DNA of 64,000 nucleotides, taken from assembly GCA_938045545.1 (NCBI GenBank), contig CALIBN010000007.1, positions 64,001-128,000 of the forward strand. The letters are read 5' to 3'. Numbering within the stretch: the first letter of the stretch is position 1; every line of letters begins with the position of its first letter. The stretch is from an uncultured archaeon (GTDB lineage: Archaea > Thermoproteota > EX4484-205 > JAAOZP01). The position numbers and the translations under genes are program-made. The notes beneath the pieces are model-generated. The model searched no databases, was not told the origin of the DNA, and was given only the letters and a program-made list of their open reading frames with translations. Shown piece by piece: positions 1 to 47,100 of this stretch.

Positions 1-1486
1 AATCATTTGGTGTCTAATGATGGTTTTCCAGGCCGCGTTAATCAGGCTGCAGCTGATTAAAAAAGAGAGGCTCCCATTCCCAATGATGATTCCGATTAAC
101 GAGATGCTTTCACAGCATCAGAAGGGAACCTTTACGCAATACATGAAGAAGCTTCCATTCATAGCAGGGGTAATACTGGGATGCATAATAGGTATACTAG
201 GGGCTTTAAACTATATTATTAAATTCACGACGGTGTTCTTCGCCTTCGGACAGTTCTACCAGCAATGGTTCGCCGACCTTATGAGCTCGATCTCTCAAAA
301 CACGATACAATCCTGGTGGATGTTCATACCCGCGGATGCTGCAATCATGTACCTTGCCCCCTTGGACATTCTTTCCTCAATAGTCATCTGGCTGTTCATC
401 TTCCAAATCCTGTTCCCACTGGTCCTCGTCAACACTGGGGTGATAACGCCCAACACTAACCCGGCTGGTACAGGCCCGTTCCCATGGCTAAACTTCAGCT
501 ACTACTGGGCCCCGTTGGCGATAGGCATCTGGACAATAGTCTTCGGCTACAAGACTTATGCTGAGAGCTTGAAGAAGAAGGAGTTTGCCCCGGGCGAACT
601 CCCAAATTCACTCGTATGGTACGGCTTCGCAGCCACATGGCTTCTCTGGCTCATCCTATGGGTCATATTCGGAGCCAACGTTCTCCCGTTGCTAGTGGGC
701 TTCATCGTGTGGTTCCTGTATACGACGGGTATGGTTGCTGTCTGCGGGGCAACAGGTACCTGGGTAGCTGGAGGAGACGCTGTTCCGGCGAGATTCTTAG
801 CGTGGGGAGTAGGCACTGGAATAGGCCTGTTCCCAGCAAGCGGTGCGGCTGCTAAAACTCAATCCGCGTGGGCAACGATGGCCGGCGTCAGCATAACTGC
901 CAGCATGGGTGGAGTGATTCATCAGAACACGCATTCCGCTTGGGCCTACACGTCAACCTACACGATGGTTGAACCCGCTAAGGTGAAGGAAACAGACATT
1001 CTAAAGTCGCACATCCTAGGAATACTTATAACGGTGCTTATCGGTGTTCCAGTTGCCGTCTACATAATCTACGGGACTGGAATAGGCCAGCTGAAGGCCT
1101 GGGGCCTCGGCAGCGGTGCAAACATCACCGGCTTCCAAGTGCCATGGGTAGTGGCTGATGCAGCGCCTCCTGCAGGCTTCCACTGGTGGATGTTCCCACT
1201 GGCTATAGTCGTGGTCGGCATCTTGTTCTTCCTGAGGGCTAGGTTCGCATGGTTCTTCTTCAGCCCGTATGCGTTATTCTTCTACTCTGGAATGTGGCTG
1301 ATAAACGCCGGGGTAGCGTGGATACTTAAACTCATAACGCTTAAAGTATTCGGAGCGAAGGCCTACGAAGAGGTTGGAGTACCCGTAGCAATAGGCTTCA
1401 TGGTTGGTGTCACTCTCATGGCTACGATAATCATGGGAGTGAACTCTGCTACCGGAGGAATATCAGTAGGACCGACAGGCTATTAG
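1..1486 (+). CDS. OPT-superfamily-like multi-pass membrane protein (cassette 1, gene A), 5'-truncated by the window edge
   Basis: The frame is open from base 2 (IIWCLMMV...). It has many TM segments and the motifs ERLPFP, YLAPLDIL and LKLITLKVFGAKAYEEVGVPVAIG, all shared with 41994..44090. It resembles what I recall as DUF6785/DUF6784 putative transporters (unverified). Confidence 0.7.
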   Translation, partial: IIWCLMMVFQAALIRLQLIKKERLPFPMMIPINEMLSQHQKGTFTQYMKKLPFIAGVILGCIIGILGALNYIIKFTTVFFAFGQFYQQWFADLMSSISQNTIQSWWMFIPADAAIMYLAPLDILSSIVIWLFIFQILFPLVLVNTGVITPNTNPAGTGPFPWLNFSYYWAPLAIGIWTIVFGYKTYAESLKKKEFAPGELPNSLVWYGFAATWLLWLILWVIFGANVLPLLVGFIVWFLYTTGMVAVCGATGTWVAGGDAVPARFLAWGVGTGIGLFPASGAAAKTQSAWATMAGVSITASMGGVIHQNTHSAWAYTSTYTMVEPAKVKETDILKSHILGILITVLIGVPVAVYIIYGTGIGQLKAWGLGSGANITGFQVPWVVADAAPPAGFHWWMFPLAIVVVGILFFLRARFAWFFFSPYALFFYSGMWLINAGVAWILKLITLKVFGAKAYEEVGVPVAIGFMVGVTLMATIIMGVNSATGGISVGPTGY

Positions 1487-1636: not shown

Positions 1637-4600
1637 ATGATAATAGTCCAAAGAAAATATTTGCTTGTTGCTGTGTTTTTAACGATGCTTGTTGTCCCTC
1701 TCTTAGCAATACGGGGGAGTCGGGAGGCTGTTGAAGAAAAAACCTGGTTAAACCAGGAAGCCCCGTTGGTTTCAGCTGACAGGATAAGAGACTATGTGGC
1801 GTTGTTTTCATCAATACAGTCAAGGTTCACAGGCTACCCGGGCTCTCTCCAAGCAGCCAGAATCATAATGGACAAGTTTAACGAATCTGACCTGAATGTT
1901 AGCCTTTTCAACTACACGGTGCTGGTCCCGTATGACTCCGGCTCATACATGAAGGTGGGTGGAAGAGTGATTAAGGCTTATGCTCTCTACCCTAATGTTG
2001 TAGCCACGGGTTTGAAAAAGGCTTCCGGAAAGCTTGTCTACGCGGGCCACGGTACTCCGGAGGAGCTTAGGGGACTTGACGTGAATGGTAACATAGTCCT
2101 CCTTGAGTTTAACTCCGGGTCTGCATGGGTAGACATGGTTAAGCTGGGCGCCTCCGGCATCGTTTTCCTAGAGGACGGTGACACGAATCGCTTCGAAGCA
2201 TTGAGAAAAATCTCCTCTGTCCCACTGAATACTCCAAGAATATACGTAGCAGGCCAGGAAGCGTCTCAGCTCAGAGAAATCGCTAAAAACAATCCGGTTG
2301 CAGAGCTCGTTAACGGTATGGAGTGGAGAGAAGTTGAGGCTGTTAACGTGATTGGGGAAATGAAGGGTGTTGAAGACCCGTCTAAAGTAATTATTATAAC
2401 GGCGAACTATGACTCCGGGTCGATTGTACCAGGGGTCGCTCCGGGGGCTGATGAAGCCATAGGTATTTCTGTCATGCTTGAATTCATCAGATCTTTGAAG
2501 CATCAGGGCCTCTCGCCGAGATACACAGTTCTTTTTATAGCGATGTCTGGACATTGGCAGGCCCTAGCCGGTGCTAGAAGCTTCGTGGAACAATTCTACT
2601 TTAACAATTCCGCGATAGGCAGGGAAGTCTTCCCGTATCTCGTCATAGACATTAAGATCAGCTCAGGAAGCCCGCACTTAAACCTTGTTTACAGCGGCAT
2701 GATGTACTCCATCAATACTCAGTATATTGCAAGCAGGTTCAGAGACCTCCGAATATTTTTTGCAAATTCAATTAAATCTTTCATTCAATCTTTCCCAAGC
2801 TATAGCGAAAAGGTTTTAACGAGCAACCTGTATCCTGGTCTATACGGCATTGCATACGACTCGGCTAGTCCCGGTTTTCAGAAGGGCCTTGCCTTCAAGC
2901 ATATTCTCGAAATGGAGCCTTTTGAGCTGGCTAACAGCATTGGGCTCGGAATAATTACTTTCGACGACTTCAGGTATCGCGTTTTCACCCCGTCTGACAG
3001 GCTGGAGTTCATCGATTTCCAGAACGTCATACCTCAAGCACAGCTAACATTCCAGATCCTGTTCGACCTGTTGAAGGCTCCGGTTGAAGAATGGTATCCA
3101 GGCAGTTGGGAGGGTTTAAGACCGTTAAGAATGGGTGAAACCTACACTGGAGTTGGTTTCACTGTATTAAAGGTTGAAGTGGTTGAATACGACCCGACTA
3201 CGCCAGGCCTATACAGCCCGGTTCCAAAAGCTTTCGTCACAGTGGGGAGCACGTTGGACCCATTCACGCTGATGTTTTCTAAATCAGATTCTTCAGGCTT
3301 CGCGGTGTTCAGGGGTTTAAGGCCATATCCTGAGGCGACGACCGCGTTGCAAACCCCTATTCAGAGCTACGTGATCGACGAGGAGGGGAGAATAATCTAC
3401 GCCCCAGACAGGGGGCAGCATGGTGCCGGAACATATCCTTCAAGCGTAACGATAGTCTCACCTGAACAATTCACGAGGAACGTTGTGTTTAAATGCGGGA
3501 GCGCCGTCATGTTCGATTTAACCGACCCGGACACTCTGCAGGCTGCAGTCTCTCCAAGCTCGATGTTTGGAACCACGAATGCTTATTCGGCACAGCTCAG
3601 GAATTACGGTGGCTACGAGACCCCGCTAACGATAAGCGTGATGATGATGCAGATACCTGGATACTCTATTCTAGACTCGTTCGGCTACGAGTTCGACCCC
3701 ATTCTGTCGGTTGCACAGGTTTACGCCCCGCCCCGCATCAGGTTCGGCTTCGTTGTTAAAAGCACGTCTATGGCTAAAACGGTTGCAGTCTATACGAATG
3801 TGACTCTGCAGAACCAGGATGGGTACGGGTATTATTTGGGTAAAGAGGGGGACAGGCTGCTCGTAAAGGGTGGAATACCCGGCATGTTCATGGAGATGTT
3901 GACATTAGCATATGGCAGGTATTTGGCTCAAGCAGATATTCAAGTTCTGGACCCAAAGACGATGGAGAATTTGAATTATGCGATAATGTTTAACCAGACG
4001 CTTCTTCAGACGGCTTCGAAAAAGGATTACAGCGGGTTCTTGACGAGCGCTTTAATGGCTTGGGGGTTCTCCAGCAAGGCTTACCAAAGCTCTTTGAGCG
4101 TTGTACGCGACGCGGTTACGAGCATAATTCTCGTATTCGCTTTAGCAATACCCTTCATCCTTCTGTTTTCCTCCCTGGTTTACAATTTGAGCAGCGGCTT
4201 TAGAAGCGTCGCCCTTACTCTTGCTGTGGCGCTGTCCGTGGCGTTGCTTTTAACAGTATTCCACCCGGGTTTCGGGCTAGCGGTAAACGTGCCTGCAATA
4301 TTCATAGGGACGCTGATAGTTGCCCTGGTTATTCCAGTGATGTTCTTCCTGTTCTCCAACTTCTCTACAGGGCTTTCCAGGCTGAGGAGAGAAGTTCTTG
4401 GTGCGCACTTCCTTGAGAGAAGCGGATTCGACGTTTCGTTTTCAGCCGTATCCATAGGAATAGGCAACTTGAAGAAGCGTAAGTTTAGAACAGTATTAAC
4501 GATGCTGTGCATAGTAATCATAAGCTTCTCGCTTTCGTCTCTGACTTCCGTGACGGAGATAAGGGCTTTAAGAGTTACCCCAACGCCCACCGAGGTAACT

Positions 4601-6154
4601 TACAACGGGGTGCTGCTGAGAACAGCCAACTTCGTCCCTTTAAACAGGAAGTTGATCGACCTAGTGTCAACCTACATATCTGGCAAGACACTTTATGCTC
4701 CGAGGTACTGGGTTTATCTTCCTTCCACTCCTGGAGAGGGGACTGCTGGCACAATAGTAATATCCTCTGAGAAAAGCAAGGCTTTGATCTACGCGGCTGT
4801 CGGAATAAGCCCTGTAGAGTTGAAAGCATCGTTCAAGCAGGTTGAAAAAATACTTTTAGAAGGATCCATGTTTAAAGAGGAAGAGGTTTTCTCAGCATTA
4901 TTGCCGAACAGCCTTGCGGAAAGCCTTAAGGTGAAGACAGGCGAATACGTCTGGGTTAACGGCTTCCGCTTAAGAGTAGCAGGCATACTCAACACGACCG
5001 CAATTCTAGCATATGTGAAAGATTCAGATGGTTTCGTGGACGTCCTGCCCATGGACACGTATATTCTTTCGAACGAGAGAACTCCTCCCCGTGCTGAGGC
5101 AGCGTTGAGCCCAGGATCCGTAATATTCGTGCCCGCCGGCCTGGTTGAATTGATTCCGGAGGCATGCTTGACAAGCGTTTTCATACCGGCAGACGGGATG
5201 GTGTTCGAGGAACTTTACGAGAAGTGCGGCGAGGTTTTCTCCGCTTTCGAAGGTTTAAACATTTATCTGACGTATAACGGCACTGTCTACCGGTTCTCCA
5301 AGGAGAACGTTATCTCGCTATTCGGCTTCCAGTTCATTCTAATACCCATGATCATCGCGGGGCTGATAACTATGTCGACGATCCTAGGCGGAGTCATGGA
5401 GAGAATACGTGAGGGCTACATATATAGCAGTCTAGGCCTAGCACCGGTTCAAGTAGGCTTAATGTTCTTCGGGGAGAACATCATATACGCTATCGTAGGC
5501 TCGATGACAGGCTATCTCGGCGGCATCTCAGCCTCATACTTGACGAGGAAAATAGGCTTGATAAACCTCCCTGTGAACTACACGTCGTCATTCGTCATGA
5601 TAGCTGTCGGTCTGGTGATAGTGCTGGTTCTGGCAGCGTCGCTCTACCCGTTCTACAGAGTCTCCGTCACAGTAACCCCGTCGCTAGAGAGGAAGTGGCG
5701 TCTCCAGACTAAGCCGAAGGGAGACTCGTGGGACATACCGATACCTTTCCGTATAAAGGAGGATGATAGGGCCGCAGGAATGGCTGTTTTCCTCCATGAG
5801 TATCTCTGGAATAAGAGGATAGAGAGGGCAGGAGTCTTCTCCATTGAAAACGTTGAGGTCAGCAAGATAGAGTCTGGGATTGGTATTAAGTCAAGAGTCT
5901 GGCTGGCACCATTCGAGCAGAACATAAAGCAGGATATGAACATAGTGATATTGAAGAGCAAGACAGAGCAGAATTTCCTTATTTTAATGAATCTAACCAG
6001 GGTGTCCGGACCCTACGACTCATGGGTCAGGTTCAACTATCCCTTTATTGATGAGATAAGGAAGCAAATGCTGATATGGAACGTTCTCAATCCAGAGGAG
6101 CGGGAGAAATACATACGTATGGCTAGGGAGCGTAGCCTAGTAGGTGAGAAATAA
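1637..6154 (+). CDS. Large membrane protein: degenerate M28 peptidase-like + PA domain ectodomain fused to a MacB/FtsX-like permease (cassette 1, gene B)
   Basis: N-terminal signal/TM. SRFTGYPG, PA-like GKLVYAGHG...GNIVLL and M28-like ANYDS...APGADEAIG. MacB TM1 GNLKKRKFRTVLT, FtsX coupling helix ERIREGYIYSSLGL, and a C-terminal cytoplasmic domain. Confidence 0.8.
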   Translation: MIIVQRKYLLVAVFLTMLVVPLLAIRGSREAVEEKTWLNQEAPLVSADRIRDYVALFSSIQSRFTGYPGSLQAARIIMDKFNESDLNVSLFNYTVLVPYDSGSYMKVGGRVIKAYALYPNVVATGLKKASGKLVYAGHGTPEELRGLDVNGNIVLLEFNSGSAWVDMVKLGASGIVFLEDGDTNRFEALRKISSVPLNTPRIYVAGQEASQLREIAKNNPVAELVNGMEWREVEAVNVIGEMKGVEDPSKVIIITANYDSGSIVPGVAPGADEAIGISVMLEFIRSLKHQGLSPRYTVLFIAMSGHWQALAGARSFVEQFYFNNSAIGREVFPYLVIDIKISSGSPHLNLVYSGMMYSINTQYIASRFRDLRIFFANSIKSFIQSFPSYSEKVLTSNLYPGLYGIAYDSASPGFQKGLAFKHILEMEPFELANSIGLGIITFDDFRYRVFTPSDRLEFIDFQNVIPQAQLTFQILFDLLKAPVEEWYPGSWEGLRPLRMGETYTGVGFTVLKVEVVEYDPTTPGLYSPVPKAFVTVGSTLDPFTLMFSKSDSSGFAVFRGLRPYPEATTALQTPIQSYVIDEEGRIIYAPDRGQHGAGTYPSSVTIVSPEQFTRNVVFKCGSAVMFDLTDPDTLQAAVSPSSMFGTTNAYSAQLRNYGGYETPLTISVMMMQIPGYSILDSFGYEFDPILSVAQVYAPPRIRFGFVVKSTSMAKTVAVYTNVTLQNQDGYGYYLGKEGDRLLVKGGIPGMFMEMLTLAYGRYLAQADIQVLDPKTMENLNYAIMFNQTLLQTASKKDYSGFLTSALMAWGFSSKAYQSSLSVVRDAVTSIILVFALAIPFILLFSSLVYNLSSGFRSVALTLAVALSVALLLTVFHPGFGLAVNVPAIFIGTLIVALVIPVMFFLFSNFSTGLSRLRREVLGAHFLERSGFDVSFSAVSIGIGNLKKRKFRTVLTMLCIVIISFSLSSLTSVTEIRALRVTPTPTEVTYNGVLLRTANFVPLNRKLIDLVSTYISGKTLYAPRYWVYLPSTPGEGTAGTIVISSEKSKALIYAAVGISPVELKASFKQVEKILLEGSMFKEEEVFSALLPNSLAESLKVKTGEYVWVNGFRLRVAGILNTTAILAYVKDSDGFVDVLPMDTYILSNERTPPRAEAALSPGSVIFVPAGLVELIPEACLTSVFIPADGMVFEELYEKCGEVFSAFEGLNIYLTYNGTVYRFSKENVISLFGFQFILIPMIIAGLITMSTILGGVMERIREGYIYSSLGLAPVQVGLMFFGENIIYAIVGSMTGYLGGISASYLTRKIGLINLPVNYTSSFVMIAVGLVIVLVLAASLYPFYRVSVTVTPSLERKWRLQTKPKGDSWDIPIPFRIKEDDRAAGMAVFLHEYLWNKRIERAGVFSIENVEVSKIESGIGIKSRVWLAPFEQNIKQDMNIVILKSKTEQNFLILMNLTRVSGPYDSWVRFNYPFIDEIRKQMLIWNVLNPEEREKYIRMARERSLVGEK

Positions 6155-8073
6155 TGGAAGAGGCTGCACGTGAAAAAGAAGCTTTCATCCCTGGGCTGAC
6201 AATCGTATCGGTCTCCGCAGTATTGTTCGGGCTTGTGGTAATCGTGCCCGCAATAATCTATTTAGGCTGGGCCGTCGGCTCTTTAGGTGGGACCGAGAGG
6301 TTCATCCCGGTTTTCGTCACAATCCTCCTATTCACCGAGGCGGGGAGGCTCGTTAAGAGGTATATAACATCGCAGGAGGCTTACATAATATACTTCATGC
6401 TTCAAGCCATAGCCCTATGGTTCGTCGGCGGAGGAATGTTCGGCGATTTCCTTATAAGGTATTACTACAGGTCCGCCCCTTACACTATCCTATACGGTAT
6501 CGCTGAAAAGCTTCCCACATGGTATGTCCCTGAGCTCGGGAGCTACGGCCCACTCCACAGGACTTTCCTCTCCCCAGACTGGGTGATTCCGATATCGATT
6601 TCTCTAGCTGTTAACGTTTGCGTGCTGATGATAGATTACGGTGTTTCTTTCATAACAAACATGCTCTACATAGAGATAGAGAAGCTCCCATTCCCCGTCG
6701 CACCCATAGACTACCAGGCGATTTCAACCCTTACTGAGAGAACACCTGAGAAAATAATGTACTTCTCTTTCGCCGCTGTGATAAGCTTCATCTACGAGTT
6801 CGCCATCTATGGGATTCCAAACATAACCTCGATTTTCCTAGGCAGGGCTATAACCGTCATACCGTATCCCTGGGTGGACTTAACCACGGGGATTGAAAGA
6901 ATCCTGCCAGGAGCCGTTTTTGCAGTCGGAACTGATATTGCTCAATACATGGTGGGCTGGCTTATCCCGTTTAACGCCGCGGTATGGATGTTCATCGGGT
7001 CGGTGGCAGTCTGGGTTTTCGGAAACTCTATAGCGCTCAGGATTGACCATCCCTACTTCAGCATGTGGCAGAGAGAATGGACTTACGGCGCGTCAATCCA
7101 ATGGTGGTGGCAGAGAGCAATCTACGACCTGTGGGCAAGTCCACAAGTAGGTTTAACACTCGGGATCGCGCTTGGAATACTTGCTGTAGGAGCCAAAAAC
7201 ATTGCGCGAGCAATCCTCTCCCTCAGACATCTTTCGGCAGAGCAGCTTAAAACATCATACTTGCCTTTCAGCTGGATAGTTGCTTTAATCGCCGCCGGGT
7301 CTATAGGCGGGTTGCTTGTTTCAGTCTCCCTTGCCCCAGAACTATGGTTCGTCTGGGTGGTGACCTGGACGATAGTTCCGTTTATTCAAGGTATTCTGAC
7401 AGCCAGGGCCACTGCTGAAACCGGGTTATCTGTCACCATACCCTACATTAGGGAGGCGTTCTTCGTTTCTTTCACAAGGCCTGGAGACGTGGTCCCGTGG
7501 GTGGTTCCGACTCATGTGACAAGTAGCGCCGGGATAATTACGCACAGGGTCTACGTGGCTAAGCTCCTGAAAGTCAGGCCCCTGGACTACTACAAGGCCT
7601 ACCTCATATTCTTCATAGTAGCTATTCTCCTATCCCTGCTGTACGTTTCAATATTCTGGGCGATGACACCCATACCTTCTGCCTTCTACCCCTACGCCAG
7701 CTACTCCTGGCCTATTTCAGCCCTCTACTTCTCCCTATGGGTCTCCAGGTCGATCGAGATTTTCAAGGTGGACGTGATAGCTATCTCAAGCGTCTTATCC
7801 TTCATAATGGTCGTCGTCTCCTCCCGTTTCCCAACGCAATACTTCTCCCCAATAGGCTTCCTATACGGTTTTCAAAACATTCCCGCTTACACGCTTCCAC
7901 CGTTGATCGGAGCCCTGATCGGAAAATGGCTTGAGAGGAGAATGGGTAAGGATAAATGGGTGGTGCGGAGAGGAGTGATAATCGCCGGAACATTCTGCGG
8001 GATCGCGCTTGCAGTAGCAGCCGCTGTCGCCGTCACTATAATGGGGAGAGCGATAACAGCTAAACCTTTCTAG
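6154..8073 (+). CDS. OPT/YSL-superfamily-like transporter (cassette 1, gene C)
   Basis: About 16 TMs and an IEIEKLPFP motif. The start overlaps the upstream stop (TAATG). Paralog of 48705..50582. Confidence 0.7.
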   Translation: MEEAAREKEAFIPGLTIVSVSAVLFGLVVIVPAIIYLGWAVGSLGGTERFIPVFVTILLFTEAGRLVKRYITSQEAYIIYFMLQAIALWFVGGGMFGDFLIRYYYRSAPYTILYGIAEKLPTWYVPELGSYGPLHRTFLSPDWVIPISISLAVNVCVLMIDYGVSFITNMLYIEIEKLPFPVAPIDYQAISTLTERTPEKIMYFSFAAVISFIYEFAIYGIPNITSIFLGRAITVIPYPWVDLTTGIERILPGAVFAVGTDIAQYMVGWLIPFNAAVWMFIGSVAVWVFGNSIALRIDHPYFSMWQREWTYGASIQWWWQRAIYDLWASPQVGLTLGIALGILAVGAKNIARAILSLRHLSAEQLKTSYLPFSWIVALIAAGSIGGLLVSVSLAPELWFVWVVTWTIVPFIQGILTARATAETGLSVTIPYIREAFFVSFTRPGDVVPWVVPTHVTSSAGIITHRVYVAKLLKVRPLDYYKAYLIFFIVAILLSLLYVSIFWAMTPIPSAFYPYASYSWPISALYFSLWVSRSIEIFKVDVIAISSVLSFIMVVVSSRFPTQYFSPIGFLYGFQNIPAYTLPPLIGALIGKWLERRMGKDKWVVRRGVIIAGTFCGIALAVAAAVAVTIMGRAITAKPF

Positions 8074-8075
8074 AG

Positions 8076-9125
8076 TTAGCGGCTGTGCTTATTTCCTTTT
8101 AGCGCGCCTATCTCGGAAGTATAGAGAATTAGTCGGTCTACCTCCGTGCTCCATCCAAGCTCCCTGGTGTGATTCGGATCCACCGCCTCAACCCATATTA
8201 GCCACCTGTCGCCCCTTATCTTGTCGAATAAGGCTTGAGCATAGGTGTGAATCGGGTACTCGGCGTGTTCGAAACGTGAAAGCGGCGTCCAAACTTTTTC
8301 GAAAATAGTTTCTAGATTAAGCCTTCCTAAATCAATACTGTAGGCGACAAAATGTTTGGTAAGCGCGTTTCCCCTTATCACGTCCAGCGTTTTCGTGCCG
8401 ATGAAAATCAGACCCGTTGAGCCTGGGATTATTGAGCCGCTGAGCAGGAAGAAGTCTGGTTGACTCTTGCCGTCAACAGTAGGTACTCCAAGCTTAACCC
8501 AGTTCTTCCCATCGCTACCGACAGCCAACGCCGTCTTCACGATGCTTGTGCCCGCCCTCCTAGCCTTGTAGAGGCAGAAGTATCTGCCATCAACTATGTC
8601 TATAGTGGCGTCTCTCGATTCTCCACTGTCGTATTCCTCGCTTCCTCTGATTACGAAGCCTTCAGGCTCCCATGGGCCGGAAGGGTCTTCCGAAGTAAGT
8701 AGGAAGGTTTCCCACCTGCTCTCTGTGAAAGCCTTCCCCTCGACAACCAAGTTCTCCCTTGAAACATTCAGCGAAAGATAAAGATGGTATCTCCCAGTCA
8801 AAGGGTCTTTTAAAAGCTGCTGGTTCTCTATGCTTAGAATCTGGTTTTCCGTCATCTTGCTCAACTCTTCCTTAGTAATCCATGTTACCAGACCATAATT
8901 CTCACCGTCCTTCGACCTGTATATTTCCACAGCGTACCCTCTCTTCATTTCCCTCATCTCCCTGGGCCTACTCGTCAACCAGTATTCCCTATTCTCCTCA
9001 TCGATCCACATTTTTCCAGCGCCGCACCAAGAGCCAGGGTTGAAATTGGGAGGGTCGAGGAGCACCTTGTTAAACCTTCTTTTGGAGAAGATGGCTTGAG
9101 GCGGGTATAGGCCATACCAGCTCAT
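8076..9125 (-). CDS. Putative five-bladed beta-propeller glycoside hydrolase-like protein
   Basis: Repeated propeller-like segments (YRSKDGENY, DPLTGRYHLYLS, SEDPSGPW, RDATIDIVDGRYFCLY, GSDGKNW). No signal peptide. Confidence 0.45.
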   Translation of the reverse strand: MSWYGLYPPQAIFSKRRFNKVLLDPPNFNPGSWCGAGKMWIDEENREYWLTSRPREMREMKRGYAVEIYRSKDGENYGLVTWITKEELSKMTENQILSIENQQLLKDPLTGRYHLYLSLNVSRENLVVEGKAFTESRWETFLLTSEDPSGPWEPEGFVIRGSEEYDSGESRDATIDIVDGRYFCLYKARRAGTSIVKTALAVGSDGKNWVKLGVPTVDGKSQPDFFLLSGSIIPGSTGLIFIGTKTLDVIRGNALTKHFVAYSIDLGRLNLETIFEKVWTPLSRFEHAEYPIHTYAQALFDKIRGDRWLIWVEAVDPNHTRELGWSTEVDRLILYTSEIGALKGNKHSR

Positions 9126-10267: not shown

Positions 10268-11398
10268 TTAGAATATGTCTTCCGCGTAGGCTACACCTGC
10301 CGCATGTATGCCCCATTCTCGATATTTTAAGCATGTGGCTGAGTAATAAGCCGTATAGATGGTTCCGTCATCAAGCTGGACACTACTTGGGTATCCGCAG
10401 TCAGCGTCTGTCGCATAAGAGACTAAGGCGGCTCTCCTGTTAAACATCCATGATCGGCCGCCGTCGAGGCTTATCACCGCATGAACCCCGTAAGGTACCT
10501 TCCGGTGTCCAAAGGTTAGCAAAACCTTCCCGCTCTTAAGGTAACAAAGGTCCCCGGGGTGTTCACCGCCACCAGTCACCTGTTTAGGCTCAGACCATGT
10601 GTAACCCATGTCTCGAGAGCGACTGATGGCAACGCATTCGCCGCCACCCTGAGCATGGGGTCCGCGGAGGGCTGCCAACAAGTCTCCATCGGGTAATTGT
10701 AGAAGAGCGGTTTCATTATATCCTTTAGCGACGATGGTTAAATCCTTCCATGTGAAACCATTGTCCTCGGAGCGTAGAATATAGCTGGTCTCTATCGAGC
10801 CTTCTAAAGTATATTCTTGAGAGTAAACAGACATAAGAATAGTTCCATCATCCGTCTGAAGCATTCTCCCATAGGGTGAAACCGCCCCTTTAAACGGAAA
10901 CTCCAGCGGCTCTGGCTTACTCCACTCCCTACCACCGTTGGTCGACCTCGTTACGAACATTTGCCACCTCATCCCATTCCTCTTCCACAACCCATTCTCA
11001 TAACCCCAGACTCTTGCAAAGGCAACCAGCAGAGTACCGTCCTTCAATTGACATAGCGCCGGATTCCTATCGTCAGTCTGAGAAACAGTTACGATTCTTG
11101 GCATTGTCCATGTCTTACCCCCGTCTTTAGATAACGAGAGTTCCAAGCGGCCTCGTTGACCAACATGGTAATCCCCCATGCGGAAGACAACCGCTAGGTT
11201 TCCGTCACGGAGTTTAGTCAAAACCGGGAAATATCCACCCATAGGAGTTATAAGATATCTTCTAACCCGCTTAAGGGAACCAACCATCGCCTCATCGCAA
11301 AACTGCATTCCATACTCGAACTCCTCATCGGCTTTCATGTTTTTCCACGGCCCACCGTTTTTCCATATGCGGGCATTCTTATTAATTTTGATGTTCAT
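10268..11398 (-). CDS. Sialidase-like (BNR/Asp-box repeat, GH33-like) beta-propeller protein
   Basis: Five Asp-boxes: SKDGGKTW, STNGGREW, SEDNGFTW, SRDMGYTW and SLDGGRSW. C-terminal GYPSSVQLDDG. Confidence 0.8.
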   Translation of the reverse strand: MNIKINKNARIWKNGGPWKNMKADEEFEYGMQFCDEAMVGSLKRVRRYLITPMGGYFPVLTKLRDGNLAVVFRMGDYHVGQRGRLELSLSKDGGKTWTMPRIVTVSQTDDRNPALCQLKDGTLLVAFARVWGYENGLWKRNGMRWQMFVTRSTNGGREWSKPEPLEFPFKGAVSPYGRMLQTDDGTILMSVYSQEYTLEGSIETSYILRSEDNGFTWKDLTIVAKGYNETALLQLPDGDLLAALRGPHAQGGGECVAISRSRDMGYTWSEPKQVTGGGEHPGDLCYLKSGKVLLTFGHRKVPYGVHAVISLDGGRSWMFNRRAALVSYATDADCGYPSSVQLDDGTIYTAYYSATCLKYREWGIHAAGVAYAEDIF

Positions 11399-39460: not shown

Positions 39461-39516
39461 GAAGGCAGCCTTATTCATGATCATGAAAAGAATGATAAAA
39501 ATAGGGTGCTTGAAAC

Positions 39517-40291
39517 ATGACGTATTCACCCCCAGTTTTCGTTAAAGAGCTCGTGGTTAAATATGGTTCTTTCGTTGCTGTCGACGGTATTTCATTCACC
39601 GTTGAACCCGGGGAAATATACGGACTTCTCGGTCCCAACGGGGCTGGTAAAACCAGCACTTTGAAAAGTGTTAACCGGGCTTTTAAAGCCTGCTTCCGGG
39701 AGAGTTGAAATATTCGGCAGGCCTCTTTCAGACGAGGTTGCTGTGAAAAGCATGATGGGCTATGTTCCGGAGGAGGTCATTCTGATGGATTCACTAACCC
39801 CAAGGGAATTCCTAGAATTCGTCGCCTCCATTAGGCGTCTAAACGCAGACACGGTTAACACGCGGCTTGAGAAACTGGTTTCAGCGTTTCAACTCAGAGA
39901 GTATTTCGACACACCTATCGCAGCCCTTTCCAAGGGGAATAAGCAGAAGGTCGCGGTAGTAGCGGCTCTGATGCACGAGCCAAAGCTCCTAATTCTAGAC
40001 GAGCCCCTGATAGGGCTTGACGCGTTCTCATCTAAAATACTCAAGGAACTGTTGACTTTCCACGCGAGCAAGGGTGGTGCAGTGATTTTTTCAACACACA
40101 TCATGGAGGTTGCTGAAAGACTCTGCACGAGAGTGGGTATAATAAACAGGGGGAGGATGGTTGGTGAGGGCACAGTCGATGGTCTTCGAAAACTGGTTAA
40201 GAGCGCGGAAGGCTCCTTAGAGGAAATATTCTTGAAGGTGACTGAGCAGGAGGCTGGAGTCCAGGAGATAGTTAAAGCATTGGAGGCGTAG
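39517..40291 (+). pseudogene. ABC exporter ATP-binding protein with a +1 frameshift in an A4 run (39664-39667)
   Basis: Walker [10 protein letters not shown] is in ORF 39517-39708. LSKGNKQK, LDEP and STH are in ORF 39668-40291. Confidence 0.75.
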
Positions 40292-40296
40292 GGTTA

Positions 40297-41955
40297 ATGA
40301 ATACTTCTGAACTCTGACAGCTGTCGAAAAAGGTTTACAGGGAGATAGTTTTCCAATCGTTCTTCTCACTCCGCGTAGGCGGGACCCTGCCTCAAACGGG
40401 TGACGTTGAGAAAAACATTGCGAAACTAGTCAGTAGTGCCGAGGTTAACGCTACCTTCAGTAAGCTCATGATGGCTTTTTTCATAGGTGTAATAGGTGTT
40501 TTCACTTTCTTCTCAGGCGTTCTGCTTGAAATGGACAGGGAGCTTGCTGCCGCATGCGGTGTTTCATCAATGCTCAGCATAGTCCTCTTCATGATAGTTT
40601 TCATGGGGTTACAGGTTGCGACATCCTTTGTCTCCTCCAGGGTTGCAGAGTTCCTCATCCCCCTACCAGTTTCAAGCGGGGATGTTTCAAAAATCCTCCT
40701 AATGTGCTTCATAAGGATCTTCGACATTCCATTAATAGCGGCGGTCTTTATACTCCCAATAGCATACGGGGTCTCATACGGCTCTATCTCGGGTGCTTTA
40801 ACCGTCCTTCTTAGCGTCGTAACTACGGAGATATTCGCATTGACTATAGCTGTTTTCCTAGCCCTATCCTTCTACTCTAAAGTGGTTAAGGGAGGAGGAG
40901 GCTCAGCGTTGAGAACCCTCATGAGGCTCTTCTACATGCTGGTCTGGATTATTCCGATGTTTCTCATGTACGCGGTCACGAGTTTCGCGATGCAGATGGT
41001 TAACCTGATGAAAACCCTTACTCGGAGCCTCTCTCACCTGCTTACATTGCTATACCCTTTTTCACTCGGCTTCTTAGCTTCATTAGCTACCTTCTTTAAA
41101 ATCGATGACCCTAGTATTGCTGCCCTATCAGTAGGCTCCTCGCTTCTCTACCTCGCCCTGGCAACATACTCTTTCAAATGGCTTGTCAAGAGGGTGGTTG
41201 GGATAGGCTTTGGAAGTGTTGCCGCAGGCAGTAGGGTGGAGGTTAAAGAAGTCTCCATAAATCCTGGGCCACCTTGGCTCGGGGTTCTTAAGAAGGATCT
41301 TAGGATCGCTTCAAGGTCTCCCTCCTACTTCAGCATACTTATAATGCCGGTTATACAGGTCATAATTTTCAGCTTCTCCTTCAGCTCCCTATATTCAGAT
41401 GTGAGCGGCGCTCCAGCGGAGCTCCTATCTTCCATGCTTCTGCCCCTATTCATGTTCATGGTTTCTTTACTTATAATACTATTACTTCCTCCCATGCTTC
41501 TAAACACTGAGAGCATTGCTTATTCCTACGTTGGAAGCCTGCCTTTAAGAAGCAGGACGCTGATTCTTGCTAAGACAATCCTAACGTCAATCGTATACCT
41601 GCTTTCGCTCCTCGTATCGTTGACGATAACTATGTTAAGAGCACCAGGACTCATACGCATATTCGCGCTTTTCGGAGGTGTTTCCACCTTCTCCGCCGCT
41701 GCTTCAATAATGTTTGAAACCCTTCTGATCTCAAGAATACTTGGGCAAACCGTCTCATCGGGAAACCTTTATTCAAAATTCCACTATTATATTCTCCCAT
41801 TGATACTGGGCTTCATGGTTGCAATGGTTCCAACCCTAGTATACTTCATGACACTGCTTCTAACAGCTTCCTTTGTTCTAGGCATAATCTGTTTAACAGC
41901 TACCTCGATCCTGGAGTTTTTAATCGCAGTTCTGCTTCTAGTTAGAAAGGGATAG
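40297..41955 (+). pseudogene. Archaeal ABC-2-like 12-TM permease with a premature TGA at codon 7 (40315-40317)
   Basis: ATG 40297 is in frame with ORF 40468-41955 (MNTSEL*QLSKKVYREIVFQS...). Motifs FLIPLPVS, KKDLRIASR and SLPL..LILAK. Confidence 0.65.
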
Positions 41956-41993: not shown

Positions 41994-44090
41994 ATGGTGA
42001 AAGGCATGAGTGAGGAAAAAGAATTCCTCCTCGGCAAATTTTTGAAGTCTCGAGGATTCATAGTTGGCCTAGTAATCTCCATAGTGATGATGCTAATACA
42101 GCTTTCAATAGACTGGACCAACGTTAATCTGACGCTGTGGGGTATGAATGCTGGCGCATTTCTAGTCCTATTTGTGCTGGCAATACTTGGCTACTTTCTC
42201 AGTTCCCTGAGGCTCAGGGCAGACGAATACGCTATCGTTTTCGCCATGGTGACGGTGAGCCTTGGCTTCGCCTGGTCTGTAGCCGTACCATTTTCAATAT
42301 CGATTTTCAACACAGCTTGGGAAAAACAATGGTGGTACATGGGATACTGGGTGTCCACAATACCGGGAGCCCTGGAGATGAGCCCCCTTTTCGGAGTAAA
42401 GGACGCAGAGGCGGCTTTAGCTGCTTTCACCGGGGGAACCTCTGTTCCTTGGGCGGCTTGGGCGCCTGCGTTAGGCTACTGGATCGTCTTCACGATAGTC
42501 TTGGTAGTATTCATGATTTCAATGGGGATGATACTTCGGAAACTATGGATAGACATTGAGAAACTTCCGTTCCCATATTTGAACATTACTAATGAGCTTA
42601 TCAATTTGGGTCTTGGCGTAACCGAGAAGCCCCGCGTGAAAAAGATACTGATAGGCATACTCATAGGCTTTCTACTAATGCTCGGGAACCTAATAGATGC
42701 CTTGGCACCCGGGAGAGGATGGAACCTGTGGCAGACCTACCACATTGAAGCCTTGGAGGTCGCATTGCCCAATTCAAGCTGGTTCTTCAGCGTTTCACCA
42801 TCTCAGCTAAGCTTATGGTATCTCGCACCGCTGGATGTTCTCTTCACCGCCGTAATCGCCTGGTTTATATTCGCAGACATTATTCCAGCCATATCAGCTT
42901 GGGCAGGATACGCGGCGCTGCAGGCACCTTGGGGAAGCTCCGGGGGAGCATGGCACAACATGGCTTCAGGCGCTATCGCACCTGTTTCCGGCGGTATGAT
43001 CGGATGGGGCGCGATGATCGGCTTAGGCCTCTGGCTTCTCGTCTACGCAAGGAAATACATTGTTTCCACGCTTAAAAACGCGTTTGGCAAGAAGGTGCTG
43101 GACGAGTCTAACGAGCCGTTCTCGTACAGAACTCTCTGGCTGGCCTTCATAGTTTCAATCGTGCTGCTCATAGTGCTCATGGTCGCCGTCTACATTCCAG
43201 TCTGGGCAGCAGGTATAATCGTAGTATATACTTGTCTCCAGTATGTTGCGACATCCAGGATCCGTGGTGAAAGCATAGCGAAGGGTGACATTCCCTGGGA
43301 ATCACAGGAGGTTTTGGCCACGCTATTGTCTCAAGCAGGCCTCTACTCGCTCGTCGGACCCCAAGCATCGGCAGCGTCTCAAGCTGCATACGGGCCAGGT
43401 GCCTACACGGCTTGGAACATGGGTTACGTGGTGACTGGGCACTACACGTGGTACTGGGGCGGCGCGGGCACGCCTCAGAGCGCTCAGCTTGAAGCCTTCA
43501 AATTGGCGACTTTAACCAAAACACATAACAGGGCTATGGCTATTTCAACCATTGTGGCCATGGTCCTCGCTGTCCTCATATGTCTCCCGCTGTGGCTGGT
43601 CTTCACGTACATGATTGGGATTGACAAGGGCTTCGGGCATGGCGGCACCCTCTACAGCCAGTGGGTCAGCCCAGCATGGTGGAGTCAAGAAGCCATTTTT
43701 AACGCTGCTTTTAACCAAGCTCAAGGCTGTTCCTGGTTTAACTGGAACAAGGACCTGCTGGGACTTGAGCTGGCGAACTGGGCTGCAGGCTTCTTCCTCG
43801 CCGGAGTTCTTCTCTGGGCTAGGGTTGCATTCGCCCGGTTTCCATTGAATCCGGTGGGTCTCATCATAGGCTTGTGCCAGCCTGCACACTGGCTTTGGGG
43901 CTACCTTCTTGTCGCATGGGTTTTGAAGTTTATAACGTTTAGAATAGGCGGCTCAAAGCTCTATGAAGAAAAAGGCGTGCCGCTGGCGATAGGGATATTC
44001 CTAGGCTCATTCATAGTATCCATAATTACCGACATATTCCTGCCGGTTGCACAAGCAGGAATAGAATGGGCTCCTGCTGTTCCAGGTTGA
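41994..44090 (+). CDS. OPT-superfamily-like multi-pass membrane protein (cassette 2, gene A)
   Basis: About 16 TMs. Motifs VPWAAWAPAL, WIDIEKLPFP, YLAPLDVL and LKFITFRIGGSKLYEEKGVPLAIG. Confidence 0.72.
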   Translation: MVKGMSEEKEFLLGKFLKSRGFIVGLVISIVMMLIQLSIDWTNVNLTLWGMNAGAFLVLFVLAILGYFLSSLRLRADEYAIVFAMVTVSLGFAWSVAVPFSISIFNTAWEKQWWYMGYWVSTIPGALEMSPLFGVKDAEAALAAFTGGTSVPWAAWAPALGYWIVFTIVLVVFMISMGMILRKLWIDIEKLPFPYLNITNELINLGLGVTEKPRVKKILIGILIGFLLMLGNLIDALAPGRGWNLWQTYHIEALEVALPNSSWFFSVSPSQLSLWYLAPLDVLFTAVIAWFIFADIIPAISAWAGYAALQAPWGSSGGAWHNMASGAIAPVSGGMIGWGAMIGLGLWLLVYARKYIVSTLKNAFGKKVLDESNEPFSYRTLWLAFIVSIVLLIVLMVAVYIPVWAAGIIVVYTCLQYVATSRIRGESIAKGDIPWESQEVLATLLSQAGLYSLVGPQASAASQAAYGPGAYTAWNMGYVVTGHYTWYWGGAGTPQSAQLEAFKLATLTKTHNRAMAISTIVAMVLAVLICLPLWLVFTYMIGIDKGFGHGGTLYSQWVSPAWWSQEAIFNAAFNQAQGCSWFNWNKDLLGLELANWAAGFFLAGVLLWARVAFARFPLNPVGLIIGLCQPAHWLWGYLLVAWVLKFITFRIGGSKLYEEKGVPLAIGIFLGSFIVSIITDIFLPVAQAGIEWAPAVPG

Positions 44091-44149: not shown

Positions 44150-47100
44150 ATGCCTCTGCAGAGAAAAATCCTGCTTCGAAGAATATTGAGAGTAAAGCTT
44201 AATCAGCTGCCGATTATCTTCTTCTTATGCTCAACGATCGTTTTTAACGCTGTTTATAAAGTGGAGGCAGACGGCCTGCAGGCCTTTAAAAATGGCGATA
44301 TTTTAAACACCATTAACGTAGACGCTATTCGCGGGCACGTAAAGTATCTATCCGGCCTAGGATGCAGGACTCCCGGTCACCCGGGCTATGAAGCCGCTGC
44401 GAAGTACATCTATGAAAACTTCGTGAAAACTGGTCTTAAACCGGGTCCTTACGGTTACTTTGAAAACTTCACGGTTCTAGTCCCCGTGGTTCACGAGGCA
44501 AGGGTTCAAGTATTATCCCCGTTCCAGTTTACTCTTGACAATGTTTTAACAATGTACCCGATGGGTCTAAACCCGGGTGTGACTCCCCCGGAGGGTATTG
44601 AGGGGAGGCTGGTCTACGTTGGGAAAGCATCCCTGTCGGAGCTTGATGGAAAAAACCTTAATGACACGATAGTGCTTGTGGACTATGAAAACAGCGGGAA
44701 TTGGATTCGCACGGTGATGTTTGGTGCTAAAGCAGTGCTGTTCGTTGAACCCGAAGCCTATAATAACGTTCAAAGTTCTTTAAACGCTAGGCTTCCGGAT
44801 GCACCTCGATTAGCTTTCAGGGGAGGAGTCAACTACCTAGGCATCCCGCTAAATATTCCTAGGCTTGTGGTTTCAAGAAGGGATGCGGAGAATCTGATCG
44901 ATCTTCAGGCAAGCGGTGAGGTTAAAGTAAGAATTAGGCTGAATGCTTCCTGGGAGGAAAAGCCAGCTTGGAATATTTTAGGCGTAATACCTGGAAGGAG
45001 AGAAGAGGTTGTGATTTTAAGCGCATACTATGATTCACAATCATACGTAGTTGGGATGGCTCCTGGAGCAGATGAGGCCATAGGCATTGCGACGATCATG
45101 GAGCTGGCTTCCTGCTTTAAGGATAATCCCCCGGAGAGAACCGTATGGTTTCTTGCTATAGGCTCTCACTACGGAGGGTTAAAGGGCTCTAGAGATTTTG
45201 TGGAACGGCACTTCGAGGAAACGGGCAAGAAGATCAGCATGTGGATAAACTTCGATCTGGCTTCCGACGTGAGCGATCTAGGAGTGTTCTTCTGCGGGTA
45301 CAACTATTATTTCGAAGCCTCCCTCTTAAGGTATACTTGGCTCCGTGATAGATTATTCGGGTCGCGGTCCGAGGTGAAGAATATCCTGCAGAACCTGGGC
45401 CTCGACATAAATGTTGAAGACGGTTTACGCGTGAGGGAATGGAGAACATACTTGCCAACTAACCTTGCTTTCGACCATGAACCGTATGTTGTGGCGGGAG
45501 GAGTCGGCATAACAGTAGCTACCGCAAATTCTTTCAGAACCTTCCGCTCCACGCCTTCTGACACCTATGAGAATAGTCTCGGCTCTCAGAGAAGGTTTGA
45601 AAACACTAGGAAACAGGTTAGGTTTATTGCAGCCTTAGCATCAAGCCTGATAAACGGTCCTGACTTCGGAAGCAAGGGCATTGGGCCAACGAGGTACGCT
45701 TTACAGCCAAATGCAGGCGGGTTCGTTACTTTAACTGGGAAAGTTGTTACATATGATTATGCGAAGGGATGGTTTAAGGAGGTGCCTCACGCACTGGTTT
45801 CAGTCCGCCTGTCTTATATGGAAGGAGGGTATTCTCCACATTTCTACTCTTTATGTAAAACGGATGAGAACGGCGTTTTTGTGGTTCACGGACTGCCTTC
45901 AGAGACAACCTATACGGGTGCGCAACAGCTGGGCGTGGGAGTTGCTGAGGTCGCGGTTCCAAAAGTTATTGTTGAGGCATTCGTCTTCAACGATAATGGA
46001 AGCATTATGTATGCCCCAGAGCTGTGGCAGCAAAGATCCGACGTATACCCTATTTCTTTCCAGGTTGACAGTGGGCGTATCGGGACCCCGGATGCACCCC
46101 GCTATTTTCCAGTCTTCCCATGCGGCTCAATAGTCTTATTCAACCTTGTTCCGCCGGTAAACCTGCTCGGGAGCATCTCTATTCTAGATTCGCGTGGTCA
46201 CACTCCACCTACTTCCTACGGCTATGTTCGCGACAGCTTCATTGAGGGCGAAGACATAACTATGATATTTGTCCCCGAAGACGTGCCTATTGAGGTTATA
46301 GCCTACAGCCCGGGAATACCTTTTCCCCAGGGAGTTTTGAAAAGTATTACTGAAGAGAATCGCGAGGGGCGAGGCTTCTCGGTTAAACAGGGTGAGACGT
46401 TAATCATCCTAGCCACTCCTTTAAGGCTTGTTAAGGATTTTCATCTTTTGAACAAGTATAGGCTTGACTTGGCGTCAAGCTACTTGGCTGCGAGCGCTCC
46501 CGCCTTAGAGTTCTCCAAAAATACGGGTAGTCTGTTAAACGAGGCTTCAAGATGTTTCTCGGCTGAAGCCAGGTTTAATTATTCTCGCCTCGTTTACGCT
46601 ACTTATGCTGCTTGGCAGAGCGAGATAAACGCTTACATGTTTACTAGGGGCCTAATTTTTGAAATAATTTCGTCAACCCTGTTCTTTTTCATACTTTTAG
46701 TTCCGTTTTCAATACTCTTTGTCGAACTCGTGTTCTCGCCGAGAAGCGGCCTGCAGAGAATATCATATGCGTGCGGGGCCTTCGCGCTTTTTACATTTCT
46801 GCTCTACTGGTTTCACCCTGGTTTCCACTTGGCGACAAACATCTATATAATGCTGGTTGGCATAGCGATCCTGGTTTTCGTCACCCCCGTCATAGGAATA
46901 CTGTGGGGCAGAATATCAGGCTTTATCAAAGCGTTTAGAGAAGAGATAATCGGCAAACATTTCGCCGAGATAAGCCGGTTCGGTGCAGTTCTCATAGCTT
47001 TCTCAATGGGCATATCTAACATGAGGAAGAGAAGGCTGCGGACTACTCTTACGCTTGTAACAATCACGTTGATAGTGTTCTCCCTTATTTCGCTAACATC

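Follow-up and report, generated by a model that had tools for sequence, protein, structure and literature searches.

M28-fold domains with altered active-site residues in two large archaeal membrane proteins carrying a MacB/FtsX-type module

The B1 and B2 genes and their active-site positions

The stretch of DNA analysed here, hereafter the window, spans 64,000 nucleotides of an uncultured archaeon of the Thermoproteota (contig CALIBN010000007.1 of assembly GCA_938045545.1, positions 64,001 to 128,000 of the forward strand). It carries two paralogous genes, B1 and B2, whose products of 1505 and 1520 amino acids (aa) share 27% identity over the full length (E 3e-150). Above the Pfam thresholds, B1 matched Peptidase_M28 (PF04389; 6.4e-10) and FtsX (4.6e-11), and B2 matched the same two families with 7.4e-15 and 1.6e-13, respectively. 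A third paralogue of about 1525 aa, B3, lies on another contig of the same genome (G000 contig C29; L002 1282-4356, L017 12035-16612). A sequence-only reading of this DNA had proposed that the M28 domain has lost its catalytic residues, in the manner of nicastrin and the transferrin receptor, and that it acts as a substrate receptor or sensor.

Active-site positions are referred to the M28 aminopeptidase 1amp, whose ligand and base residues we take to be His97 (first zinc-ligand His), Asp99, Asp117 (bridging), Glu151 (general base), Glu152 (ligand), Asp179 and His256 (last ligand His). The genes, the M28-fold domain and the positions of interest are as follows:

1637-6154 (+): B1, open reading frame of 1505 aa; from N- to C-terminus a membrane anchor, a PA + M28-like domain, a beta-rich region, a helical stalk with 3 transmembrane (TM) helices, a MacB/FtsX-type module and a C-terminal domain (from the open reading frame, Pfam and AlphaFold2 (AF2) models)
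1769-3076 (+): PA + M28-fold domain of B1, about residues 45-480 (phmmer to 2ek8 and 1amp, AF2, Foldseek, VIA-align)
2405-2413 (+): B1 Asn257-Tyr258-Asp259 in place of HxD, within ANYDS from residue 256; Asn at the first zinc-ligand His
2438-2464 (+): B1 APGADEAIG, residues 268-276; loop one residue shorter than in canonical M28
2546-2560 (+): B1 SGHWQ, residues 304-308; His306 at the general-base Glu151, Trp307 at the ligand Glu152
2648-2656 (+): B1 Asp338-Ile339-Lys340; the Asp179-type position is Lys340 (family alignment) or Asp338 (pairwise to 1amp/2anp)
2912-2917 (+): B1 Met426-Glu427; Met at the last ligand His (D-H-x-P/S-F motif) in the family alignment and in the four-way alignment
44150-48712 (+): B2, open reading frame of 1520 aa, paralogue of B1
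45026-45028 (+): B2 Tyr293, in AYYDS from residue 292; first-ligand His position
45167-45172 (+): B2 His340-Tyr341; Glu-Glu position
45476-45478 (+): B2 His443 in DHEPY; last ligand His retained

HMMER alignment to 1amp/2anp paired Asn257 of B1 with His97, Asp259 with Asp99, His306 with residue 151 and Trp307 with Glu152, and the family profile aligned with 2ek8 yielded the identical residue pairing. Regarding B2, His340/Tyr341 fell on the Glu-Glu of 2ek8 and 6hc6, corresponding to residues 151/152 of 2anp. The two substitutions at the first zinc-ligand His that the sequence-only reading had named, Asn257 of B1 (codon 2405) and Tyr293 of B2 (codon 45026), were recovered both by position and in the HMMER alignments. 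It had also given SGHWQ and GSHYG as the replacements of the catalytic Glu-Glu: the pair is indeed replaced, but only H-W in B1 and H-Y in B2 correspond to it, not the whole pentapeptides. APGADEAIG is identical in both proteins, as had been noted (in B2 it starts at residue 304, and GSHYG at residue 338), and the three motifs quoted for B1 all lie inside 2380-2580, a span that covers residues 249-315 and the first three M28 active-site motifs.

As an internal control, we used the genome's own 423-aa M28 protein (L004 1123-2394), which carries AHYD, VDNAGG and GEELGLRGS. In a four-way alignment, its Glu-Glu fell on H-W of B1, H-Y of B2 and H-W of B3. This PA/M28 protein, encoded on G000 contig C12, has the His, the Asp and the Glu-Glu, shows D-S-I-P-F at the last ligand His and may itself be non-canonical.

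At the short loop of B1 the pairwise alignment left a gap at the bridging Asp117, and the profile alignment paired Asp272 with the ligand Asp of 2ek8. With the loop one residue short and the gap at a different place in each alignment, the bridging site could be filled by Asp272 or by Glu273. The last-His segment of B1 is collinear with that of 2ek8 and individually non-significant. In B2, the family alignment places Asp369 at the Asp179-type position, so this ligand Asp is kept. Written over nine positions (His97/Asp99/Asp117/Asp118/Glu151/Glu152/Asp179/His256/+1), the signature reads N-D-D-E-H-W-K-M-E in B1 and Y-D-D-E-H-Y-D-H-E in B2, and B1 retains at most the bridging acid and one Asp. Judged from these alignments to active M28 aminopeptidases (2ek8, 6hc6, 1amp/2anp), which bear out the loss of catalytic residues proposed before, the canonical co-catalytic M28 machinery is gone from B1 and B2, and neither has a general-base Glu.

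The substitutions recur in relatives. Asn is found in 13 of the 14 cluster representatives of the B1 clade, with Ser in the other one, and AYYDS, GSHYG and DHEPY are kept in all three B2 orthologues, which come from congeneric genomes. The paralogue-specific signatures were held among orthologues in 3/3 cases for B2 and 2/2 for B3. Because they recur in the B1-clade representatives and the B2 orthologues, the substitutions are inherited and not sequencing errors.

A family-wide replacement of the Glu-Glu pair

Of the 8000 candidates scored in a word-indexed search with B1 residues 40-520, 148 proteins matched at E up to 0.001, and the best 120 of them were listed. An exhaustive HMMER scan of 1.84 billion cluster representatives gave 2293 matches at E up to 0.001, including 489 at or below 1e-30; the best 150 of the 2293 were listed. 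The resulting census of 248 proteins, 247 of which entered an alignment guided by a hidden Markov model, is made of best-scoring relatives and is no random sample. Among the best 120 of the 148, nearly all proteins measured about 1450-1560 aa, and product names, where given, were 'FtsX-like permease family protein' or 'M28 family peptidase'. The source names in this same set included Thermoproteota, Bathyarchaeia, Thermofilaceae, Nitrososphaerota, Micrarchaeia, Heimdallarchaeota, Hodarchaeales and Promethearchaeota. In a sample of the phylum, a match at E up to 1e-10 was present in 35 of 121 genomes, with up to 9 matches per genome; in 2 of those 35, the sole match was a short frame (148 and 470 aa).

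Neither position of the pair holds a Glu in any of the 247 relatives aligned. The general-base column (306) contains H in 214, Y in 17 and F in 8, so that His, Tyr or Phe stands there in 239, and the ligand-Glu column (307) contains W in 162, Y in 23, N in 23 and H in 17, with Trp, Tyr, His or Phe in 206. Asp259, of the Asp99 type, is invariant (247/247). Acids also dominate columns 272 (D 116 and E 59, 175 in total) and 273 (E 174 and D 64, 238 in total), and column 427 is E in 216. The Asp179-type column (340) holds D in 183, E in 19 and K in 15. The first-His column (257) has H in 155, Y in 60 and N in 17, and the last-His column (426) is the most varied, with S 118, M 26, A 24, T 22, I 16 and H 16. 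No relative has the five canonical ligands together and none keeps the Glu152/His256 pair, a loose version of which occurs in 4; neither the first His nor the Asp179-type acid is present in 29.

The resulting family consensus signature is H-D-D-E-H-W-D-S-E. B3 is of this consensus type (H-D-T-E-H-W-D-S-E, with AHFDS, SGHWQ and DSEP) and keeps the first His, and the sister clade of B1, at about 55% identity, shows H-D-D-D-H-W-E-M-E. As Glu is absent from both positions in all 247 while H (214) and W (162) prevail, HW in place of EE is the hallmark of the whole family of ~1500-residue proteins. By the same alignment, the Asn and Lys of B1 and the Tyr of B2 are lineage-specific, and the loss of the canonical catalytic centre is both ancient and general. 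Loss of the first His was considered as a family hallmark and ruled out, given that 155 relatives and B3 keep it. The proposal that the His at the EE position may have taken on a new role fits its conservation in the family.

Then, we inferred a FastTree phylogeny from 244 sequences, with the tracked columns removed beforehand, and counted the minimum number of state changes at each position. These amounted to 36 for the first His, 19 for the Asp179-type acid, 22 for His306, 22 for Trp307 and 10 for the last His. That the old ligand positions are so labile argues against an obligatory metal site. Loss of His306 was confined to scattered tips and went mostly to Tyr or Phe (25 relatives), neither of which can take a base or metal-ligand role in the usual way. 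With aromatic or imidazole side chains in 239 and 206 of the 247 relatives, the pair looks more like a surface for packing or stacking than like a site of acid-base chemistry. Asking whether the first His and the Asp179-type acid are lost together, we obtained 16 supported independent pairs, in which the second trait changed the same way in 2.4 (mean) and the opposite way in 0.6, and was unchanged in 13.0.

Fold, membrane module and gene neighbourhood

We modelled B1 residues 28-825 with AF2 from an alignment of 53 rows, and the model reached a mean predicted local distance difference test score (pLDDT) of 91.6 and a predicted template modelling score (pTM) of 0.91. With the head model as a query, Foldseek placed 2ek8 (2.7e-25) and BSAP (6hc6; 7.8e-24) on top, followed by GCPII and the transferrin receptor. 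VIA-align superposed the model on 1amp with a Z of 29.1 and a root-mean-square deviation of 2.4 A over 268 of 291 residues, and gave Z values of 25-27 for glutaminyl cyclases, GCPII and the transferrin receptor. In the predicted structure, the M28 alpha/beta fold of the B1 head is complete. Active and inactive relatives alike lie at Z 25-29, so the fold ranking cannot separate them.

The domain is also under constraint. Between B1 and P0016, identity was 66% in the M28 core (residues 226-345), 75% in the FtsX helices and 45-68% in other parts, and the conservation of the core between B1 and its relatives about equals that of the C-terminal domain and stands behind that of the FtsX helices alone. 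With its M28 core conserved like the rest of the protein, the domain is maintained by selection and not decaying. In the PA domain of B1, Trp164, Lys191 and Arg201 are invariant.

By profile, the best matches of the family were 2ek8 (1.6e-29) and BSAP 6hc6 (1.4e-21), with the transferrin receptor (1e-11), 2anp (1.1e-11) and nicalin (1.1e-8) behind, and no nicastrin chain was found among the matches at E up to 0.001. The Pfam Nicastrin family was hit in B1 only, below threshold (14.8 vs 25 bits), and NCBIfam holds no family for B1 or B2, which gave far sub-threshold matches alone. According to these results, the closest relatives are active PA-M28 aminopeptidases. Given the weaker transferrin receptor and nicalin matches and the sub-threshold Nicastrin hit, the likeness to nicastrin and the transferrin receptor put forward by the sequence-only reading is a functional analogy that arose by independent loss; as kinship it does not hold.

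The N-terminus of B1 carries Arg6-Lys7, followed by a hydrophobic stretch at residues 8-25. After this anchor come the PA/M28 head, then a beta-rich region and then long helices, as seen in the AF2 model. The parts after the head and the membrane proteins encoded around B1 and B2 are listed below:

4034-4471 (+): B1 residues 800-945, three-helix block after the head with FtsX-like topology
4472-5671 (+): B1 MacB/FtsX-type permease module (TM helix, extracytoplasmic domain, 3 TM helices); Pfam FtsX at residues 1233-1343
5672-6151 (+): B1 C-terminal alpha/beta domain after the last FtsX helix, residues 1346-1505; strongly conserved, with invariant Pro/Arg/Trp columns and no Pfam family
1-1486 (+), start upstream of the window (L016 9504-11486): A1, DUF6785 polytopic membrane protein (Pfam), 660 aa in full
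6154-8073 (+): C1, 639-aa polytopic membrane protein, no Pfam match; holds the position of OPT-like proteins at other loci
41994-44090 (+): A2, DUF6785 + DUF6784 membrane protein upstream of B2 (Pfam 5.4e-37 and 2.3e-14)
48705-50582 (+): C2, OPT-like membrane protein downstream of B2, overlapping its end (Pfam OPT 6.1e-06, 25.6 vs a cut-off of 25.8 bits)

The family profile matched MacB 5lil with 8.9e-18. A second AF2 model, of B1 residues 746-1505, reached a pLDDT of 86.7 and a pTM of 0.71, and Foldseek aligned it to MacB 5gko (2.0e-10) and the MacB periplasmic domain 3ftj (9.8e-05), besides LolCDE, HrtB, YtrF and YbbP. B1 has the four-helix FtsX module with an extracytoplasmic domain between TM1 and TM2. 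A tandem-FtsX duplication was rejected: comparison of residues 800-945 with 1195-1345 gave an hhalign probability of 0.08% (global) or 0.6% (local), hence no sequence support. Only the 1 + 3 arrangement of the helices and a weak Foldseek hit on the tandem YbbP (6.9e-06, TM-score 0.17) still speak for it. As the three-helix block has no sequence similarity to the FtsX helices, a 'tandem FtsX' would be a matter of topology only.

Regarding the neighbourhood, the counterpart of C1 at the G095 locus gave a weak OPT match (3.6e-05). A DUF6785 or OPT-like gene lies near B at five of six further loci, adjoining it at three and one gene away at the B3 and G021 loci. Neither at the two loci in the window nor at the 6 others does an ATPase gene adjoin B, the rest of the genome not having been searched for a partner. 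An ABC ATPase gene at 39514-40291 (+) is frameshifted, with the Walker-A part at 39514-39708 and the remainder at 39665-40291, by a possible assembly error or as a pseudogene. It precedes a 12TM_1 gene (40468-41955) that lies directly upstream of A2-B2-C2, and it looks like the partner of the 12TM protein and not of B2.

Other genes lie around these clusters. At the B3 locus, a DUF6785 gene is found one gene downstream and a 905-aa protein with a CBM_4_9 carbohydrate-binding domain two genes upstream. Downstream of the B1 cluster we detected a weak GH43-like open reading frame at 8076-9125 (-), with an E of 0.0023 that is below threshold, and a BNR/sialidase-like protein at 10268-11398 (-), with 8e-25; these two neighbours hint at glycan use nearby. 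Outside the window and directly upstream of A1-B1-C1, L016 5306-9322 contains three radical-SAM genes, one of them MoaA-like.

Interpretation and comparison with known systems

Taken together, we favour the reading that in B1 and B2 the PA + M28 domain has retained the complete aminopeptidase fold but not the two-zinc catalytic centre, and that this head most likely binds a ligand instead of acting as a canonical aminopeptidase; we give this reading a probability of roughly 0.6. The former active-site cleft would have been rebuilt, with the near-invariant His and aromatic pair at the Glu-Glu position and the conserved acids Asp259, Glu273 and Glu427 (B1 numbering) around it. We infer that the head stands on the outer face of the membrane, in a large loop between the N-terminal anchor helix and the three-helix block, with the MacB/FtsX-type module in the same polypeptide and the DUF6785/OPT-like permeases encoded alongside. 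There, the His/aromatic pair and the acids around it would bind a peptide or a glycan from outside the cell, and the head may pass this ligand to the membrane module and the permeases encoded nearby, or signal to them that it is there.

Several observations weigh against the ligand-binding head. Three of the five ligand positions are kept in B2. A His, an acid and a second acid stand together at one zinc half-site in 139 of the 247 relatives (B1 and B2 not among them), so the family ancestor may have been a one-metal protein, and the census that yields these counts was drawn from the best-scoring relatives. Moreover, a His at the general-base position is compatible with catalysis, and the entry title of 2anp calls an E151H aminopeptidase 'functional'.

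Hence, one could argue that the rebuilt cleft is still catalytic, with His306 as the base, one metal or none, and a peptide or another substrate. Besides the half-site triad and the wording of the 2anp title, such a non-canonical enzyme would account for the conservation of His306, Asp259, the acid at 273 and Glu427. Glutaminyl cyclases, which have the M28 fold (Z of about 26 to our model) and work with one metal, set a precedent. However, in B1 three ligand positions are taken by Asn, Trp and Met and a fourth by Lys or Asp, 25 relatives have Tyr or Phe instead of His306, the first His has changed at least 36 times, and the Glu152/His256 pair survives in no relative (4 with the loose version). 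We regard this enzyme as unlikely, though it is the main rival. An improbable alternative is a regulatory or scaffolding pseudo-enzyme, whose inactive peptidase head would bind another surface protein, not a nutrient, and control it. FtsEX activates cell-wall amidases by means of EnvC, whose peptidase domain is degenerate. The head of B1 is likewise part of one protein with an FtsX/MacB-type module, and membrane machines of this class drive partners of that kind. A cleft conserved without catalytic residues and a multi-copy gene (3 paralogues here, up to 9 matches in a relative) would suit this role, but at the loci examined B has neither an ATPase gene nor a conserved partner enzyme beside it, its conserved neighbours being the polytopic DUF6785/OPT-like permeases.

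That the substitutions reflect assembly errors or a pseudogene seems next to negligible. The genome is a draft in 51 contigs and one neighbouring gene is frameshifted; against this, both reading frames are intact, the B1 head is modelled with high confidence, and the orthologue comparison, with the same changes in 13/14 B1-clade representatives and 3/3 B2 orthologues, refutes it. A more speculative proposal, which we also hold to be rather improbable, makes the family a new functional M28-fold derivative. In it, the ancestral His/Asp/Asp half-site found in 139/247 relatives would sit beside an invariant His-Trp, forming a one-metal enzyme or a metal-dependent receptor, with the MacB/FtsX-type module opening and closing its cleft. 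Along the B1 lineage, Lys340, next to Asn257, would have taken the place of the metal, leaving the protein permanently metal-free, and the three paralogues would be three chemically different versions of one machine.

As for what a ligand-binding head would mean, two sediment metagenome studies (PMC6752024, PMC9123169) count M28 genes towards the potential for extracellular aminopeptidases. Such counts would be inflated by a family that comprises at least 489 clusters at 50% identity (E up to 1e-30) and lacks the catalytic Glu-Glu in the 247 relatives aligned. Our full-text literature searches (M28/FtsX/archaea or DUF6785) returned no paper on the B family, and those on M28 pseudoproteases with nicastrin, nicalin and the transferrin receptor returned nothing relevant. 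A peptidase-shaped head in a MacB/FtsX-type module, encoded with OPT-like permeases, would be an unstudied surface system of Thermoproteota, Bathyarchaeia, Asgard archaea and others. The putatively rebuilt, conserved cleft points to the residues to mutate and puts ligand-binding assays ahead of peptidase assays. The family would also add an independent example of a metallopeptidase fold put to a different use, and the paralogues within one genome differ in how far the loss of ligands has gone.

By sequence and fold, the known proteins closest to the B family are the PA-domain M28 aminopeptidases of Aneurinibacillus (2ek8) and Bacillus subtilis (BSAP/YwaD, 6hc6). They share with it the PA insert in the M28 core and the HxD, GA(x)D, GLxG and TPxD motif frames. 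They differ in having Glu-Glu and the full ligand set, where B1 and B2 have His-Trp and His-Tyr and no first His, and in being enzymes of about 400 residues, whereas B1 and B2 are membrane-embedded proteins of 1500. The E151H mutant of the Aeromonas/Vibrio proteolytica enzyme (2anp) carries a His exactly where the B family conserves one, but it keeps the five metal ligands, while Glu152 is found in 0/247 members of the B family and the last His in 16/247.

Regarding the membrane half, the C-terminal part of the B proteins resembles the Type VII ABC permeases (MacB, LolCDE, FtsEX, HrtBA, YtrEF and YbbAP) in its FtsX domain and its MacB-like extracytoplasmic domain. Unlike them, the B family has no ATPase gene adjoining it at the loci examined, and it has a whole peptidase-like head built in.

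Transferrin receptor 1, nicalin and nicastrin are inactive M28-fold ectodomains that serve recognition. Like the B proteins, they present a PA/M28-fold ectodomain on a membrane anchor with the catalytic site lost (Z of about 26 for the transferrin receptor), and they differ in partners, domain of life and the set of residues substituted. Finally, glutaminyl cyclases reuse the M28 fold as the B family does, with a reduced metal site in which an Asp/Glu/His set and the catalytic Glu are kept. These are exactly the positions that the B family has lost; where its members keep anything, it is the other half, His/Asp/Asp.

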